A DNA stretch of 64,000 nt from Escherichia virus TH22: sequence record MT446396.1; one strand, 5' to 3'. Shown here one piece after another: positions 3,888-24,625 of this stretch. The notes under the pieces were generated by a model. That model saw only the letters and a list, made by a program, of their open reading frames with translations. It did not search any database and was not told the origin of the DNA. Each line of letters opens with the position of its first letter. The first letter of the stretch is position 1. A program made the translations under genes and the position numbers.

Positions 3888-5948
3888 ATGTCTGAACAAT
3901 TAAATGAACTCTTTGACAAATATATCGAAGCCTTCGGTTATCCTGTCATTAATATGAATCCAAAATACAAGGTCCCACAGGTTTGGCAATTTGGTGTTCC
4001 TGGGACCAATTCTCTTATGGCTCGTTTGATGCAATTCACGGGCAAAGAAACAGTTAAACAATATAAACGCGGCGATGCAATTGCCGAGGTATTCCTGTTA
4101 TCCGGAACTTCACACGGTCATGCTGTTCCTCTGAAGGGTGGTTTAGGTGAAAAACCTCTTGATGCAATTAACTTGATTTTTACTACAGTCTGGGAAAGCA
4201 TTAAACTAGGCAAACCTGATGTAGTCTTGTTCCGTTTCCCATCCAAAAAGATGAAAGGACAAGACCAAGCTATTATTCGTATTATGAATCGACTGATTCA
4301 AATGAAAACCAGCGGACGTTATCATGTTCTTCCGAATGCTTCTGGCCTTGGTAAAAAGAACGCTTATGTAATTATGTACAAAAGGGGTGTTGACCTGCTT
4401 TCAGTCGATGGTATGCCACCAGTCCCTGAGAAATATAAAAAAGTCGAAACTAAAGTTGGTGATGTATTCACCAATAAAGATAATGGTGCACAAGTATCCA
4501 AACAAGAAATTGCAGCCGAGATTCTGATTGACGCAGCAAACAAAAAGACCGATGCTGCTGTTGCCCAGAAAACTAAAATCAGTCGCCGAGCTATTGCACA
4601 AGCCCAGTACGCTCCAAGTGATTCCGTGCCAGAAGGTTGGGACGAAATCGATGCAGAAGCTGCTAAGTTTAGTCGACCGGCTACGGCAGAACTTATCGAT
4701 GATTATGAAGAACTGGAAATTTTTGTTCGACCTTCCGAAACGAATACTATGGCTCGTATGCGCGCAGCAGATACGGCTATGCGAGCAAATGGTGTTTGGA
4801 AAGAAGAAATTCGTGTTGAAGACTCTGACCCAATTTTTAACCGTATGCATCGCGAACTTAAACGTGCTCCAGTTGGTAGTATGAAGCAGATGCAGATTTT
4901 TGCCGAATCATGCGCAGAGATTCTTAACCTTCGCAAAGCCGCATTTATCGAAAGAAAAATGAATGATGCTCCTCCTAATGTGGATGCAGCCACTTATGCA
5001 GCCTCGCTCTGGGAAAAAGAATACACAAGCGCCATTCGTGTTGCAGTTAAAGACTTTGCTGAAGAAGCATCAGAAAATACTCTTAATTTCACAGCAGGGT
5101 ATACTGACAACCGTTTCCATTATGGTCAGCGAGAAGCAATTGCAGATTATTGTGGAGCAAACTATGCCGATATTAATAATTATTTGATGGGCAAATATTA
5201 TGAAGAAGAAGCTGAATTCCTAAATCTAGACAGAGTTGTCGAAACAATTAAGGAATTGGATTCGGCCTTTGAAATTGGACATAAGTTGCCACCTAATACA
5301 ACTCTTTGGCGTGGTCAATATTTAAACGTTCCTACATTTGATAAAATTAAGAAATCTAAATTATTTTATTTCAGGAACTATGTATCAACGTCGTTTAAAC
5401 CGATTATCTTTGGTGGCTGGGTGGCGAACGTTGCTATGGCTGCAGTTCATCAGGACTATCGTGATGGGACATCTTTCCAGGCTGATGACGAAATTGTTTT
5501 ACCAGATATGCCGGAAGCACGCCGCGACCACGTAATGATGCATGTTGGTTGGAAAATTTCTGGGGCGGACTTAATTAACGTAATTGTTCCTGGGGAATTG
5601 TCAGGCAACCCATCCGAGCAGGAAGTTATTCTTCCTCGTGGGACTGTAGTTAAGATTACCAAAATTACTGATGCTTCGTATCAAGGAAACGCGAACGTCA
5701 AAATGCTGGAAGCTGATATCCAGACTACGGACCAACTGGATGAAAATGCAGTTATCTATGATGGTGATGTGTTGATGGAAACTGGTGAGCTTGTCGTTTA
5801 TCAGGGCGAGGAAACAGAAGAGCCAGTAGAATCTGTTGACTTTGCATCGTTTGCATCCTCTGGGGTAACGAAGAAAGTCAATCAAGGTCTTGGTATTCTT
5901 GCTAGTTGTATTAATTTGGAAGCTATTCCTCCTAAATTCCTTTCGTAA
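3888..5948 (+). CDS. alt: Alt-like ADP-ribosyltransferase (capsid-packaged, injected)
   Basis: 686 aa (T4 Alt about 682 aa); position between ligase and gene 54 as in T4; C-terminal R-S-E motifs (LWRGQ, YVSTSF, EQEVILPRG). Confidence 0.85.
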   Translation: MSEQLNELFDKYIEAFGYPVINMNPKYKVPQVWQFGVPGTNSLMARLMQFTGKETVKQYKRGDAIAEVFLLSGTSHGHAVPLKGGLGEKPLDAINLIFTTVWESIKLGKPDVVLFRFPSKKMKGQDQAIIRIMNRLIQMKTSGRYHVLPNASGLGKKNAYVIMYKRGVDLLSVDGMPPVPEKYKKVETKVGDVFTNKDNGAQVSKQEIAAEILIDAANKKTDAAVAQKTKISRRAIAQAQYAPSDSVPEGWDEIDAEAAKFSRPATAELIDDYEELEIFVRPSETNTMARMRAADTAMRANGVWKEEIRVEDSDPIFNRMHRELKRAPVGSMKQMQIFAESCAEILNLRKAAFIERKMNDAPPNVDAATYAASLWEKEYTSAIRVAVKDFAEEASENTLNFTAGYTDNRFHYGQREAIADYCGANYADINNYLMGKYYEEEAEFLNLDRVVETIKELDSAFEIGHKLPPNTTLWRGQYLNVPTFDKIKKSKLFYFRNYVSTSFKPIIFGGWVANVAMAAVHQDYRDGTSFQADDEIVLPDMPEARRDHVMMHVGWKISGADLINVIVPGELSGNPSEQEVILPRGTVVKITKITDASYQGNANVKMLEADIQTTDQLDENAVIYDGDVLMETGELVVYQGEETEEPVESVDFASFASSGVTKKVNQGLGILASCINLEAIPPKFLS

Positions 5949-5951
5949 GGG

Positions 5952-5981
5952 GTTTACAAGCACAAGGAAGTGCGATACAAT
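5952..5981 (+). promoter_or_regulatory. early promoter (GTTTAC-18 nt-TACAAT)
   Basis: -35 GTTTAC and -10 TACAAT with 18-nt spacer, then GAGGA and ATG at 6013. Confidence 0.55.
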
Positions 5982-18388: not shown

Positions 18389-18418
18389 GTTTACAAGTTA
18401 AAAATTCCATGTTAAGAT
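18389..18418 (+). promoter_or_regulatory. early promoter (GTTTAC-18 nt-TAAGAT)
   Basis: -35 and -10 hexamers with 18-nt spacer upstream of ORF 18436. Confidence 0.5.
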
Positions 18419-19029: not shown

Positions 19030-20037
19030 ATGTTTAAGAAATACAACAGCCTTGAAAATCACTATAATAACAAGTTCATTGAAAAGATTCGCCTGCAAGG
19101 CTTCACCAGCGGTGAATGGGTAGCTCGTGAAAAGATTCATGGTACCAACTTTAGTTTAATCATTGAACAAGACAATGTGACATGCGCGAAACGCACTGGA
19201 CCTATTCTACCTGCAGAAGATTTCTATGGTTATGAAATTGTATTAAAGAACTACGCAGATTCTATTAAATCTGTGCAGAAACTTTTACAGGATATTAATT
19301 ACCAGGCTTACCAGATTTATGGCGAGTTTGCTGGTACAGGTATTCAGAAGAATGTGGATTACGGCGATAAAGATTTCTATGTGTTTGATATCCGCGTTAC
19401 TAAGGAAGATGGCTCTGAATCCGTCCTGACTGACACACTTATGGAAGCCTTTTGTATTATTCATAAGTTTAAAGTTGCCCCACGCCTGGCCACAGGTAGC
19501 TTTGAAGACTTGATTAAGCTCCCTAATGACCTGGATTCTGTGGTCCCTGATTACAATTTTACAGTGGATAACGCAGGATTGACTACAGCAAATACCACTG
19601 ATTTTGATGCAAAGGTGGAAGGTAAAGTATTCACTGCTGAAGGATTTGTATTAAAACCTGATGTTCCTGCATGGTTACCTAACGGCGAGCGTGTAGCGAT
19701 TAAATGTAAGAACTCTAAATTCAGCGAAAAGAAAAAGTCTGATAAGCCTATTAAGGCTGCTGTTGTGTTGTCCCAGGAAGACCTGGATGTTTTATGGAAG
19801 TTTACTGATTATGTGACTGTCAACCGTATCAATAATGTTATCAGTAAGATTGGGGAAGTAACACCTAAGGATTTTGGGAAGGTAATGGGTTTGACTGTCC
19901 AGGATATCCTGGAAGAAGCGGGTCGTGAAGGCCTTGAATTGACCCAAACAGAAAATCCTGTTGAAGTTAAAAAGCAACTTATCGCAAATGTAAGAGAAAC
20001 ATTAAGACATGTTTGGATTGCATTAATTAGTGAATAA
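19030..20037 (+). CDS. rnlB: RNA ligase 2 (Rnl2)
   Basis: 335 aa; [19 protein letters not shown]...[12 protein letters not shown] and [18 protein letters not shown] match T4 Rnl2 as recalled, including the KxHGxN nucleotidyltransferase motif. Confidence 0.9.
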
Positions 20038-20068
20038 AAAAAGGGCCGCAAGGCCCTTATTCTTTTTC
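20036..20068. terminator. bidirectional terminator AAAAAAA-GGGCC-GCAA-GGCCC-UUAUUCUUUUU
   Basis: Hairpin flanked by A-run and T-run between convergent rnlB and gene 24 paralog. Confidence 0.8.
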
Positions 20069-21340
20069 CAGCGGTGGAAGTTTAACACCAAGATAAGAAC
20101 TCAATTGACTTTGGTTAGCCATCTTATCCATATCAGCTCCATCAATAAGGCGAGCTTCTTTATCATCTTTAGCAACGGTGTAAGGGTTCGCAGTCAAAGC
20201 ATAACGAGCTAACAGTGCAACCGTAGGCTGTAAGCTTTCAGGGTCAACAATAACCTTGAATTCCCCAACCGAGGTATCACCCTCATCATCAACTTCGCTA
20301 AGCCCTTCCGTATAAGGCGCATAATACAAAGATGCGACCGTCTGACCTTCACCCATATCTGCATTTACACCAACAATAACATAATCACATGGACTATTCA
20401 TATCAGCGTAAAGAGGCAAACCGTTCTTCAGAACACCATAGGCCAATTCATCCTGGTCTTCCTTTTTCTCAACCCAGCCAGAAGCGGCTAAAATAGCTGC
20501 ACAACGGGAAGAAGCAACCGCATATGTACCAGCAAACGAAGTCTGACGTTGAACTGCAGAATTCATTTCACACATATAATAATACAGGGTTCGCGCGCGG
20601 TCCTGCGCGTTATCATATTTCGGGTCAGTAAGATTCAATACACCTTTTTCCGAAACACCTTGCACCTTGAAGCGGGAACTAACAGTAATAAGGGATTGCA
20701 ATACATCCTTATTAATTTCCTCTGCCATTTGAATGCCGAGAATATTATCGATGAAGTCTGTTGCATCAAAACCGTTTGCTTCCAGGTCCTGGGCAAGCTC
20801 GACAGTTAAAGAAGTTTTCAACTTTCTGGATTTAACTTCAGTCTGCCATTTATCGATACGAAAACCAGCTTCAGCAATTTCAGGATGCCCCTTTTCAAAT
20901 TTATCAGTGAAAGCAGCATCTGACATCATTCTTATATGCCCAGCAGCAATGGCTTCAGAAATAACTTCACCTAAATCAGTTTCGAGTGTACCGGCGAATG
21001 GGGATGCTTCCAAAACTTTGAACACAACACTTTCAAACTGGAACATATCGCCGACTGCATAAGCTTCGTCTTTGTTTGTAAATTCTGGAATATTCTTACG
21101 CTCGAACATACCAATCTGACCTGCAAATGTTGCTCCACCGAGATAAGTCATTTTATCATCTGGGTTCAGAACACGAACACCATACAGCGCTGCAACAGGC
21201 TGGGTAGTTTTCTGTTCGGCCACGAGCGCTTTAAAAATTCGTTTATTCGTGGCTTGAGTATAAGAAAGCAAATTAGGACGGGCGACCTGGTTGGCCGCCG
21301 TTAATGTTGATTCGTGAATTAGTGCATTAATCTTTTGCAT
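20057..21340 (-). CDS. capsid vertex protein paralog (divergent second copy of gene 24)
   Basis: 427 aa; colinear with the adjacent gp24 (MQKINALIHEST versus MAKINKLLREST, shared RKLKT..TVELAQDLEANGF, ANPYTVAKDDKEARLIDG) but clearly more divergent. Confidence 0.8.
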   Translation of the reverse strand: MQKINALIHESTLTAANQVARPNLLSYTQATNKRIFKALVAEQKTTQPVAALYGVRVLNPDDKMTYLGGATFAGQIGMFERKNIPEFTNKDEAYAVGDMFQFESVVFKVLEASPFAGTLETDLGEVISEAIAAGHIRMMSDAAFTDKFEKGHPEIAEAGFRIDKWQTEVKSRKLKTSLTVELAQDLEANGFDATDFIDNILGIQMAEEINKDVLQSLITVSSRFKVQGVSEKGVLNLTDPKYDNAQDRARTLYYYMCEMNSAVQRQTSFAGTYAVASSRCAAILAASGWVEKKEDQDELAYGVLKNGLPLYADMNSPCDYVIVGVNADMGEGQTVASLYYAPYTEGLSEVDDEGDTSVGEFKVIVDPESLQPTVALLARYALTANPYTVAKDDKEARLIDGADMDKMANQSQLSSYLGVKLPPLEKE

Positions 21341-22621
21341 TTACGCCTCATAAATGATTGGCGGAAGTTTAACACCGAGCAGATAAGACATATTGCTCTG
21401 ACCGGCCATTAAATCCATATTGGTTGCATCGATAATACGAGCTTCTTTATCGTCTTTAGCAACGGTGTACGGGTTAGCTGAAAGTGCGTAACGAACCATC
21501 AGAGAGATAGATGGCTGCAAGCTGTCTGGGTCCACAATGACCTTAAACGCACCAACGTGCTCTTCATCATCCAAGTCCAGGCCTTCGGTATAAGGAGCAT
21601 AGAAAATTGCGCCTACGACTTCGTTTCCGCCGTAATTTTCTTTAACACCAACAGTTACATAATCCAATGGACTGTTAACATCACAGAATACAGGGAGGCC
21701 ATTAATCAAATAACCGTACGCTGTTTCGGGGAGCCACTGTTCGTCTTCTGGTCTGTGTTTCAACCAACCAGAACCGGCCAACATAGCAGCAACACGGCTA
21801 GAGGCAACAACAAAGGTACCGGAATAAGATGTAGTTTTCTGAATTTCGGAGTTCATTTCGCAAACCAGTTCGTACAGTTTACGTGCACCTTCTGGGGCTG
21901 CATCGTATGTTAAATCGATGGTGCCATTGTCAGAAACGCCAGTTACTTTATAACGCTTGGAAACGGTAATAAGAGACTGAAGAACATCTTTGTTAATTTC
22001 ATCTGCCATAATAGTGGCAAGCAGGTCTTCTAAGAAAGCAGGAGCATTAAAACCATTTGCTTCCATATCCTGGGCAAGTTCAACAGTTAATGCAGTTTTC
22101 AATTTACGTGTTTTAACCGGAGCATTCCATTTGTTAACCTGGAATACAGCATTGCTAATTTCAACATCACCGGCTTCGAATTTTTCAGTGTGTGCGGCAT
22201 CAGGAACAAGGCGAATAGTCGATGCAATAAGACCTTCTTGCAGAACATCAGATAACACTGTTTCTGTGGTCGATGCAAATGGATTATCAACCAGAGCTTT
22301 GTAAACGATATTTTGGTATTTTATATATTCGCCTTTAGCCACAGGCTGAGTGGCTGTAGTTAATTCTGGAATAGTTGTGCGGTCTTTAGAACCGACTTCG
22401 CCTCCATAAGTAGCGCCCGTCTGGAAACTGAATTCATTATCAGGAGTAAGATATTTAACACCATACAGTGCAGCAACAGGTTGGTTAGTACGTTGTTCAG
22501 CGATGATATCGCGGTAAATCAATTTAGTCGTAGCGCGGGTCAAAGCAACAAGATTCGGGCGGCCCAAGGAGTTGCTGGTAGTAATAGTTGACTCGCGCAG
22601 TAATTTGTTAATCTTTGCCAT
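21341..22621 (-). CDS. 24: capsid vertex protein
   Basis: 426 aa; MAKINKLLRESTITTSNSLGRPNLVALTRATTKLIY closely matches T4 gp24 (427 aa) as recalled. Confidence 0.9.
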   Translation of the reverse strand: MAKINKLLRESTITTSNSLGRPNLVALTRATTKLIYRDIIAEQRTNQPVAALYGVKYLTPDNEFSFQTGATYGGEVGSKDRTTIPELTTATQPVAKGEYIKYQNIVYKALVDNPFASTTETVLSDVLQEGLIASTIRLVPDAAHTEKFEAGDVEISNAVFQVNKWNAPVKTRKLKTALTVELAQDMEANGFNAPAFLEDLLATIMADEINKDVLQSLITVSKRYKVTGVSDNGTIDLTYDAAPEGARKLYELVCEMNSEIQKTTSYSGTFVVASSRVAAMLAGSGWLKHRPEDEQWLPETAYGYLINGLPVFCDVNSPLDYVTVGVKENYGGNEVVGAIFYAPYTEGLDLDDEEHVGAFKVIVDPDSLQPSISLMVRYALSANPYTVAKDDKEARIIDATNMDLMAGQSNMSYLLGVKLPPIIYEA

Positions 22622-22647: not shown

Positions 22648-22655
22648 TATTTATA
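22648..22655 (-). promoter_or_regulatory. late promoter TATAAATA (minus strand) for gene 24
   Basis: Plus-strand TATTTATA about 27 nt upstream of the gene 24 ATG. Confidence 0.6.
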
Positions 22656-22661
22656 AAAGTT

Positions 22662-22708
22662 GTTTACAACCAGATTAAGATAAGACATAATGATTCCATA
22701 CTGAGTTA
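22662..22708 (+). promoter_or_regulatory. early promoter GTTTAC-18 nt-CATAAT followed by conserved leader GATTCCATACTGAGTTA
   Basis: Hexamers read directly; the same leader recurs at 60795, 61681 and 62209. Confidence 0.6.
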
Positions 22709-22733
22709 ACAAACAAAACCTTGGAGTTTAAAA

Positions 22734-23015
22734 ATGAACAAAGCAACTTTCCTTCTGAACACCTTTAAAAAATTGGAAATTGAAGTTATTACATTGGTCA
22801 ACAAATACCCAAATGGTGTTAATGGTAATGCTCTGAACAAACTAGTTAAAAAATATGAAAACTTAGCATATGACACTGATTTCTGGTGGAATGGTAATTA
22901 TTCTACTCACACTAAAGATAAAAATGGTAACTGGTTGAAACTTCAAGAAAACAATGTTAACTTCAGAGACCTCATCAAGCGCCGGGTAGAAGTTCATTTA
23001 AATGGTATGGTATGA
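22734..23015 (+). CDS. hypothetical early protein (93 aa) between genes 23 and 24, opposite strand
   Basis: ORF with own promoter, GGAG Shine-Dalgarno and downstream terminator; N/K/W-rich. Confidence 0.45.
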   Translation: MNKATFLLNTFKKLEIEVITLVNKYPNGVNGNALNKLVKKYENLAYDTDFWWNGNYSTHTKDKNGNWLKLQENNVNFRDLIKRRVEVHLNGMV

Positions 23016-23023
23016 AAACAAGA

Positions 23024-23050
23024 AAGGGACCTCAAGGGTCCCTTTTTATT
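23024..23050. terminator. terminator GGGACC-UCAA-GGGUCCC + U-run (A-rich on the other side)
   Basis: Hairpin between convergent ORF 22734 and gene 23. Confidence 0.75.
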
Positions 23051-23065
23051 TAACTTAATCTAGGA

Positions 23066-24625
23066 TTAAATTCCTTTAACATATACGCGGCGGAAGTAAC
23101 CGTTCAAGCCGAGGCTGTTAACGATGTCTGGCATGCCGTTCTGAATGCGCTTGGTCGGAGCCTGAGCTACCGGGTCAGCGAACGGGTTAATACCGATACC
23201 GTAACGGGTTTTGAAGCCCATAACCGGCTGGAAGTTTTTCGGGTCAGAGCCACGCAGCGGGGTCAGTGCAACATATGGTGCGTAGTAGATACCAGCATCC
23301 ATTTCGTTAGCGCCTTTGTAACCGATGGTGAAATAGTCTGCACGAGCATACTGGTCGATGTATACACGGTATTTGCCACCCAGAACACCAGCGAACACAG
23401 CTTTAGTGGTGTCAACGTTGAAACCTTTACCCAGACCCTGAGCAGCATAAGATACGGAGGTATCAACTGCAGCCAGTACGTTAACTACGTTACGGGAAGC
23501 GATGATGAAGTTACCTGCACCACGGCCAGTCTGACGAGCGATTTCAGCGGCTTCTTTATCAATCTGGAACAGTAAAGCTTTGAAGCTTTCACCAGCCCAA
23601 CGAGCGCCACGGATATCAATCGGGTCCTGGAAGTCAAACACACCAGCTTTAGCGCCAACGGTGTTGGTCATACCAGATTTACCAACCTGTGCGGAGTAGT
23701 TAATCCAATCGATAACTTCGCGGTTGATTTCCAGCATAATTTCGGTAGCCAGAATACCACTCAATTCGGCATCAGCATCCATACCATGAACAGCGCGCAG
23801 GTCCTGTGCCAGTTCGATGGAGTAACTTGCTTTCAGCTGACGGGATTTAGCTTCGATAACTTGTTTATCGATACGGAAGCCCATTTCGTTCCACGGGTTA
23901 TCAGTAGAACCGTTGAAGCCTTCCTGCAATTCGGCGATAGAGGTAGCCATACCTTCAGCGATTTCGGCCAGCTTACCAGCTTCGAGCAGTTTGGTAACTT
24001 CGGCGTCAAGTTTAGCGGCATCAGTAGCAGCAGCATCAACGGTTACAGCTTCAACAGCCTGGAAGTGCGCGGCACCGGTTGCTTCGAAGAAGTGAGAATA
24101 AATTTTACCAACGGTAAGAACTTTGCTTGCAGCCAGAGCTTCGAAAGCCTCAGCAGCGCCCTGACCAGAGAACATAGCATTTGGAGCATACATCGGGTGG
24201 AAAGCTTCTTTAGCACCAGCAGCTACAGGGTCTTTACCGTAAACTGCACGCAGGGCAAATACCTGGCCAGTCGGGTTGTTCAGAGGCTGTACGCCACAAA
24301 TATCAAACGCAATCAGATGTGGGATAGCACGACGAACCATACCCATAACTGCCGGCCCAATCTGAGTTACTGCACCAGAGGTCTGGCCAGCAGCGATATT
24401 GGTAGCATCATAACCATGGTCACCACCGATTTCAGCTTCGGTCAGGAAAGAACCAAATGCTTCGGAGATTTTTTCGTCACGGTATTCAGGAGCGGTCAGA
24501 ATATCTTGTTCCTGGTTTTCAAAGATTTTAGCGATGATAGCTTGTTTAGAAGCACCAACGATTTCCGGAAGAGCTTCGTTTTCCAGCAGAGCGGACCATT
24601 TTTGAACTAATGCATTCTTTTTCAT
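23066..24625 (-). CDS. 23: major capsid protein
   Basis: 519 aa (T4 gp23 521 aa); paralogous to gp24; position between 22 and 24. Confidence 0.95.
   Translation of the reverse strand: MKKNALVQKWSALLENEALPEIVGASKQAIIAKIFENQEQDILTAPEYRDEKISEAFGSFLTEAEIGGDHGYDATNIAAGQTSGAVTQIGPAVMGMVRRAIPHLIAFDICGVQPLNNPTGQVFALRAVYGKDPVAAGAKEAFHPMYAPNAMFSGQGAAEAFEALAASKVLTVGKIYSHFFEATGAAHFQAVEAVTVDAAATDAAKLDAEVTKLLEAGKLAEIAEGMATSIAELQEGFNGSTDNPWNEMGFRIDKQVIEAKSRQLKASYSIELAQDLRAVHGMDADAELSGILATEIMLEINREVIDWINYSAQVGKSGMTNTVGAKAGVFDFQDPIDIRGARWAGESFKALLFQIDKEAAEIARQTGRGAGNFIIASRNVVNVLAAVDTSVSYAAQGLGKGFNVDTTKAVFAGVLGGKYRVYIDQYARADYFTIGYKGANEMDAGIYYAPYVALTPLRGSDPKNFQPVMGFKTRYGIGINPFADPVAQAPTKRIQNGMPDIVNSLGLNGYFRRVYVKGI

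Follow-up and report, generated by a model that had tools for sequence, protein, structure and literature searches.

What is a 93-codon open reading frame (ORF) doing on the opposite strand between the capsid genes 23 and 24 of a T4-type phage, and does it form a self-contained early transcription unit there? We addressed this question in a 64,000-nucleotide stretch of DNA from Escherichia virus TH22 (MT446396.1; hereafter, "the window"), a virulent member of Gaprivervirus (Straboviridae, Tevenvirinae). An initial annotation, made from the window alone, had described a moron-like gene with its own early promoter, ribosome-binding site, and terminator. The ORF is present at the described place and on the described strand (Table 1). 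The region around it is 100% identical to those of Escherichia phages UPEC07 and TH55 and 91 to 99% identical to those of VR7, VR25, VR26, SP18, and other Gaprivervirus members.

Table 1. Coordinates of the features discussed in the text (window positions unless another sequence is named)
Feature	Position	Strand	Details or basis
rnlB	19030-20037	+	ORF list
Second gene 24 paralog	20057-21340	-	ORF list
Gene 24(1)/24a, capsid vertex protein	21341-22621	-	ORF list; VR7 and JS98 annotation
T4-type late promoter TATAAATA for gene 24(1)	22648-22655	-	Exact motif match
Early-type sigma-70 promoter (predicted)	22662-22691	+	-35 GTTTACA, 22662-22668; 17-nt spacer; -10 CATAAT, 22686-22691
Shine-Dalgarno sequence GGAG	22723-22726	+	7 nt upstream of ATG; read from sequence
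Small ORF, 93 aa	22734-23015	+	ATG start; stop codon included in coordinates; ORF list
Bidirectional intrinsic terminator (hairpin and T-run)	23021-23047	both	Terminator scan
Gene 23, major capsid protein	23066-24625	-	ORF list; annotation of identical records
T4 segD candidate promoter	~107253-107281 of T4 NC_000866 (locus 5254-5282)	- of locus	Sigma-70-like match

The small ORF is a genuine protein-coding gene under purifying selection. Among eight Gaprivervirus alleles, pairwise dN/dS values ranged from 0.05 to 0.36, and the variable sites were distributed over the three codon positions in a ratio of 7:5:15. Frame +1 alone was open in all 10 homologs compared, at identities down to 25 to 37%, and each of the remaining five frames was broken in its own way (n = 10). 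An ATG-initiated ORF of at least 93 codons arose in 57 of 20,000 shuffles (0.3%) of the 444-bp gap between genes 23 and 24. The ORF is thus conserved as coding in relatives, one of the points on which the initial annotation had made its reading depend. Divergence of the protein is fast (37% identity where gp23 keeps 84%), and the G+C content of the small ORF is 0.33, as opposed to 0.49 for gene 23, 0.43 for gene 24, and 0.41 for the whole window.

As a gene, the small ORF is already annotated, ordinary in kind, and without novelty. It belongs to the phrog_6003 family (i.e., VR7ORF190c, SP18 gp189, JS98 orf173, and RB69ORF188c), which it matches over its full length (residues 1 to 90 against profile positions 1 to 90 of 90; E = 2.5e-46). 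Homologs were detected by tblastn in 237 phage records, and dozens of GenBank records already carry it as a hypothetical protein, including one from UPEC07 that is 100% identical. Protein identity is 90 to 98% for other Gapriverviruses, approximately 61% for Dhakavirus alleles, and approximately 37% for Mosigvirus alleles. The gene occupies the same place, in the same orientation, between genes 23 and 24 of VR7, VR25, VR26, SP18, JS98, and PhAPEC2. No paralogs were found within the window. A literature search returned no mention of RB69ORF188c or phrog_6003, and the literature on VR7, JS98, and gene 24 yielded nothing relevant to the small ORF and no report of a transcript, protein, or phenotype. 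Some records place the start 12 to 15 nt further upstream (e.g., CJ20, locus 817-1110, and IME08, locus 2442-2723, the latter reading MRRLK-MNK...); this upstream start would overlap the Shine-Dalgarno sequence, and the ATG equivalent to window position 22734 is the start kept across lineages.

The protein is rich in N (17%), K (12%), and W (3%), as described initially, and basic, with a pI of approximately 9.5 (8.0 to 9.8 in all eight family members tested). AlphaFold2, run on a 10-sequence alignment, predicted a compact structure (mean pLDDT, 91; pTM, 0.75) composed of a helix at residues 3 to 24, a second helix at residues 31 to 48, a beta-hairpin (52 to 61 and 67 to 71), and a third helix at residues 77 to 91. 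The most conserved feature is an NGNAxN motif that opens helix 2, and the invariant polar residues of the family are K3, N32, N35, and Q71. Searches of Pfam, NCBIfam, and PADLOC gave no match for the 93-aa protein; the initial statement that it has no recognizable motif thus holds for Pfam and NCBIfam but not for phrog_6003. A sequence-profile search of the PDB returned noise only (best E = 0.0055, to a designed coiled coil). Foldseek found no match in the PDB with E < 2 and, in BFVD, a single family member (A0A346FIP4). The predicted fold is therefore a confident one without detectable structural relatives in these searches.

When 1.84 billion representative proteins were searched exhaustively with the family profile, approximately seven real clusters were recovered, all consisting of phage proteins of 84 to 93 aa. 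The same profile matched a 1,347-aa protein (P0015) and a 3,916-aa protein (P0018) in 9 and 11 repeated stretches, respectively, which we rejected as homologs. The matched regions of P0015 are Ig-like tandem repeats with a W..SSD..VATVD..G pattern, and the matches to both giant proteins probably reflect composition and repeats rather than homology. A 90-aa homolog (P0010) on a 173-kb contig has been named "NADPH-dependent curcumin reductase CurA" by JGI, an evident misannotation. Three distant family members (25 to 31% identity) occur in unrelated phages: (i) in Acinetobacter phage ABPH49 (Vequintavirinae), amid small hypothetical genes; (ii) on a contig carrying tail genes of the lambda-J type, downstream of a terminator and a TTGACG-17-TATATT promoter; and (iii) on a contig that is a long array of small genes, where it has its own sigma-70-like promoter. 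No conserved partner gene and no adjoining nuclease was found next to these three. This lack of a conserved neighbor suggests that, in several phage lineages, the family behaves as a stand-alone accessory gene that comes with its own promoter.

The capsid neighbors of the small ORF in the window are typical for the group: the gene 23 product is 97.5% identical to JS98 gp23, and the gene 24(1) product is 89% identical to JS98 gp24a. The 3' ends of the small ORF and gene 23 face each other, and its 5' end faces that of gene 24; the unit therefore converges on gene 23 and diverges from gene 24, and is not convergent with gene 24 as originally stated. Downstream of gene 24(1), a second gene 24 paralog abuts the first, stop next to start. 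The two paralogs share only approximately 55% identity with each other, and each is 89 to 96% identical to its JS98 counterpart (24a or 24b). This duplication is annotated in JS98, IME08, and VR7, and the gene is single copy in T4, PhAPEC2, and F2.

Between the converging ends of the small ORF and gene 23 lies a hairpin with folding energies of -17.0 kcal/mol on the + strand and -15.9 kcal/mol on the - strand (z ~ -3.3). Its minus-strand tail is UUUCUUGUUUU, and it receives a terminator score there for gene 23. Compensatory changes maintain the stem among relatives (GGGACC/GGTCCC, GGGACTC/GAGTCCC, and GGGAGAC/GTCTCCC), and an equivalent hairpin occupies the same position in gaps that have no small ORF, namely, those of TH57 and T2. 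A search of Rfam gave nothing above threshold, and the subthreshold matches corresponded to the terminator hairpin only. The hairpin is the resident gene 23 terminator, common to the small ORF and gene 23. A terminator was thus correctly seen behind the small ORF, but it is not private to it; since this hairpin is shared and present at empty gaps, the unit supplies only a promoter and the ORF and falls short of a complete promoter-ORF-terminator module.

The T4 early promoter consensus, attributed to Miller et al. (2003), comprises a GTTTAC-type -35 element, a 17-nt spacer, and a TAnnnT-type -10 element, and GTTTACA is a typical T4 early -35 form. A promoter scan of the window identified an element of this type upstream of the small ORF, in which TTTACA (22663-22668)-17-CATAAT agrees with the sigma-70 consensus at 10 of 12 positions and the predicted transcript start lies near 22698. 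The position of this putative early promoter is conserved across four to six lineages, from Gaprivervirus to T4, and its -35 element is invariant. The spacer has diverged, and the -10 hexamer stays in one alignment column (CATAAT in the window; TATAAT in TH15; TACTAT in JS98, F2, and PhAPEC2; and TATTAT in T4), with A at position 2 and T at position 6 in six of six sequences. Such constancy of position in a changing sequence is the strongest computational argument for the reality of the predicted early promoter, which the initial annotation had already proposed. Gaprivervirus, Dhakavirus (JS98), and Mosigvirus (PhAPEC2) all carry the block TATTTATAAA(A/G)(G/A)TTGTTTACA without change, and the T4 counterpart of this block is recognizable as TATTTATAAAGTTATTTACA. 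The GGAG ribosome-binding site was likewise read correctly at the outset, and the motif precedes the start codon in all seven aligned sequences. A motif scan found no TATAAATA on the + strand upstream of the small ORF.

The early-type promoter is set back to back with the late promoter of gene 24. The late motif TATAAATA occurs 22 times in the window versus 4.9 expected, and the copy for gene 24 precedes the ATG of that gene (22621) by 27 nt, with a gap of only 6 nt between it and the opposite-strand early -35 element. In the aligned sequences, this copy is invariant in Gapriver-, Dhaka-, and Mosig-type phages and in T4. The A/T tract of the late promoter falls at the expected place of an UP element, approximately 43 to 50 nt before the predicted early start, and may thus contribute to both promoters. 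TH57 has the octamer AATAAATA in place of TATAAATA as the late promoter of gene 24. Elsewhere in the window, further + strand matches to the GTTTACA...-10-like pattern occur at 18389-18418, approximately 600 nt upstream of rnlB, and at 5952-5981; these may drive other opposite-strand early genes in a mostly late region. As a whole, the GTTTACA...-10 pattern is not enriched (14 matches versus 9 expected by chance).

Comparison of related genomes at the junction of genes 23 and 24, a check that the initial annotation had suggested, revealed a cargo slot that occurs in four states: (i) empty, in T2, CC31 (Karamvirus), a Jiaodavirus, and Gaprivervirus TH57, where nothing but the terminator of gene 23 and the late promoter of gene 24 occupies the 80- to 90-bp gap; (ii) the small ORF only, in the window, which is without segD, and in VR7, SP18, JS98, and PhAPEC2; (iii) segD only, in T4, on the same opposite strand, and in Gaprivervirus TH15; and (iv) the small ORF followed by segD, in F2, the LF82 phages, and IME08, with one promoter, one terminator, and a 3-nt gap between the two genes. 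The junction of the small ORF and segD was spanned in 38 records, and 49 further records matched the ORF part only. The initial annotation had not mentioned that this slot is the SegD homing-endonuclease site of T4. The slot ORF of TH15 (219 aa) matches SegE_GIY-YIG and homing-endonuclease models, is 72% identical to T4 SegD, and follows a promoter with the same GTTTACA -35 element and its own TATAAT. The slot is thus polymorphic within one genus, TH57 being empty and TH15 carrying segD in place of the small ORF. The small ORF is dispensable in nature.

The TH57 empty gap (locus 745-815) resembles segD-bearing TH15 (locus 1470-1520) on either side of the hairpin. The matching flanks read CAATAAAAAAGGGACTCC...CCCTGAAATTT, and ORF-bearing relatives differ there. 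This resemblance suggests that segD was recently gained or lost between TH57 and TH15.

Because the slot is a homing-endonuclease site, the small ORF might be taken for a functionless, decayed fragment of a homing endonuclease or other mobile element, and the match of the TH57 empty site to the TH15 segD site on both sides of the hairpin would be consistent with the gain and loss of such cargo. The gene itself does not have the look of debris: the reading frame is unbroken in each of the 10 homologs examined and in the 237 tblastn records; dN/dS is far below 1; a compact fold is predicted with confidence; and neither Pfam nor PADLOC detected a GIY-YIG or HNH signal in its product. We also compared the family with SegD directly by hhalign, which gave a probability of 1%, and rejected the small ORF as a SegD fragment. 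The decayed-fragment reading is disfavored, and we give it almost no credence.

A role in cis deserves more attention, since the initial annotation had proposed that convergent transcription could modulate late readthrough. On this view, gene 23 termination or gene 24 expression would be tuned by early transcription that is antisense or convergent, or else by an occupied divergent promoter, and the ORF would be incidental. The architecture is suggestive in this respect: the early promoter and the late promoter of gene 24 form one physical block, gene 23 uses the same terminator, and an opposite-strand transcription unit is kept in several lineages whatever the cargo. Selection, however, acts on the amino acid sequence, and alleles at 31 to 37% identity keep their length and predicted fold. 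T2, CC31, and TH57 do without such a unit, and in other phages, family members lie far from capsid genes. Moreover, T4-type phages transcribe their early and late genes at different times, which speaks against interference of this kind. The selection on the protein sequence makes the late-readthrough idea unnecessary to explain the conservation of the small ORF, and we regard a cis role as highly improbable.

The T4 occupant of the slot bears on when this unit would be expressed. Upstream of T4 segD lies a TTTACA-17-TATTAT element with an upstream TG, at the same position as the early promoter of the window. In a 2010 review, no segD-specific promoter had been found, transcript levels were described as perhaps vanishingly low, and the antisense orientation was described as unusual (PMC2988022). 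According to the supplements of a 2022 time-resolved omics study (PMC9697503), T4 segD is classed as "early RNA, middle protein," and the SegD protein was detected. We therefore propose TTTACA-17-TATTAT as a candidate T4 segD promoter, in agreement with the early class in those supplements. Given the homologous promoter block, the early segD RNA recorded there indirectly supports early transcription of the window slot. From the promoter consensus and the example of T4 segD, we infer that the small ORF is expressed early.

The small ORF and segD have also traveled together. Phage F2 (MN864145), which is filed under Tequatrovirus, has a mosaic locus between genes 23 and 24. At the amino acid level, its gp23 and gp24 are 97.5% and 99.5% identical, respectively, to those of Mosigvirus PhAPEC2 and approximately 95% identical to those of T4, and its flanking 400-nt segments are 96 to 99.5% identical to PhAPEC2 at the nucleotide level. 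The small ORF of F2 is 93 to 94% identical to those of JS98 and IME08 at the amino acid level (92% to IME08 at the nucleotide level), whereas its identity to the PhAPEC2 allele is only 31% (amino acids) and 53% (nucleotides). The breakpoints lie at the ORF start, where the alignment with PhAPEC2 persists until 8 nt before, and at the segD end/terminator. These alignment breaks indicate that an ORF-segD cassette replaced the resident allele in F2, and the combination of a Mosigvirus-type capsid backbone with a Dhakavirus-type cassette indicates that the cassette moves between lineages. T4 SegD is reportedly active and expressed but does not home its own gene, a finding attributed to Sokolov et al. 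(2018, Virology 515:215), so that SegD may not have driven the spread of the cassette. The F2 mosaic could have arisen by ordinary recombination, and transfer of the cassette would be most simply explained by recombination or gene conversion around segD.

This joint transfer into the F2 backbone raises the possibility that the small protein is a partner of SegD (e.g., a modulator, a self-protection factor, or an expression leader) and that the small ORF, where it stands alone, is the relic of a two-gene cassette. Several features fit such a partnership: the two genes form an operon with a 3-nt gap, the same junction recurs in the 38 records, and the segD genes of the slot are all orthologs (59 to 72% identical). 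The lack of an obvious Shine-Dalgarno sequence before segD also suggests translational coupling with the small ORF. Nevertheless, each gene is found without the other. T4 and TH15 have segD alone; the ORF-bearing Gapriverviruses examined, the JS98-type phages, and PhAPEC2 have the small ORF alone; and the distant family members have no nuclease neighbor. Purifying selection on the small ORF persists in lineages that are without segD. Taken with these points, a dedicated SegD partnership appears improbable to us.

The explanation that we consider likely as a whole is that the small ORF is an ordinary accessory gene with an early-type promoter, one of the interchangeable cargoes of a conserved slot, whose product is directed at the host or at nucleic acid. 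Host sigma-70 RNA polymerase would start at the T4-early-type promoter, back to back with the gene 24 late promoter, whose A/T-rich TATAAATA tract may sit in the place of an UP element. The polymerase would read through the 93 codons in the orientation opposite to that of the capsid genes and stop at the hairpin that also terminates gene 23. The gap serves T-even phages as a conserved slot that holds nothing, the small ORF, the GIY-YIG nuclease SegD, or an operon of both, and the cassette may have moved between lineages via recombination or gene conversion around segD. The product is a small, soluble, basic protein of predicted helix-helix-beta-hairpin-helix topology that is dispensable for growth and under purifying selection. 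It may act early on a host component or on nucleic acid, in host takeover or counter-defense, with a benefit on some hosts only and no part in capsid assembly. This functional class is the most likely one by analogy with small early T4 genes and in view of the basic charge and dispensability of the product; domain, profile, and Foldseek searches gave no homology or fold match pointing to any target. A more specific version, in which a new-fold effector (either a counter-defense or host-takeover protein with a host target or a SegD modulator) has spread via the SegD homing slot and the gap is an early-expressed cargo bay with the promoter and terminator belonging to the backbone, seems to us unlikely, if less so than a dedicated SegD partnership.

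In itself, the small ORF is of little significance, being one of many small dispensable early phage genes. The natural knockouts available in the same genus (i.e., the empty TH57 and the segD-only TH15) make it easy to screen for effects on host range or anti-defense. The 23/24 intergenic slot is also of modest interest, being conserved as a site of expression, with cargo that passes from one lineage to another along with SegD. The slot provides a compact test system for whether free-standing homing endonucleases carry neighboring genes along. The T4 element described above is, in addition, a candidate for the segD promoter that was missed in the 2010 review (PMC2988022).

Among known systems, the closest are the phrog_6003 family members, which are the same gene as the small ORF, with no difference and no published characterization found. 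The segD cassette of T4 shares the slot, the opposite-strand orientation, the divergent promoter block, and a hairpin of the gene 23 terminator type. It differs in its content, segD encoding a GIY-YIG nuclease of approximately 220 aa and the small ORF a 93-aa protein without nuclease motifs or similarity to the SegD profile. In Dhakavirus- and F2-type phages, segD lies directly behind the small ORF.

Morons, as described by Hendrix and colleagues, are extra genes of temperate phages, with their own promoter and terminator, located between conserved genes. The likeness suggested by the initial annotation extends to an opposite-strand coding unit with a predicted promoter and a ribosome-binding site, a low G+C content, a position inside a late structural operon, and absence from close relatives. 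It does not extend to the terminator, which is resident and not brought by the insert, and the promoter is part of a block conserved across different cargoes. Since the phage is virulent, there is no prophage expression, and lysogenic conversion is not applicable to the small ORF. The small nonessential early genes of T4-type phages, which lie in plastic regions and serve in host takeover and counter-defense, offer a further comparison. The small ORF differs from them in lying in the capsid late-gene cluster and not in the usual early clusters. Like them, it is short, A/T rich, dispensable, patchily distributed, and fast diverging, with a predicted promoter for the host RNA polymerase, and its relatives reside inside small-gene arrays of unrelated phages.
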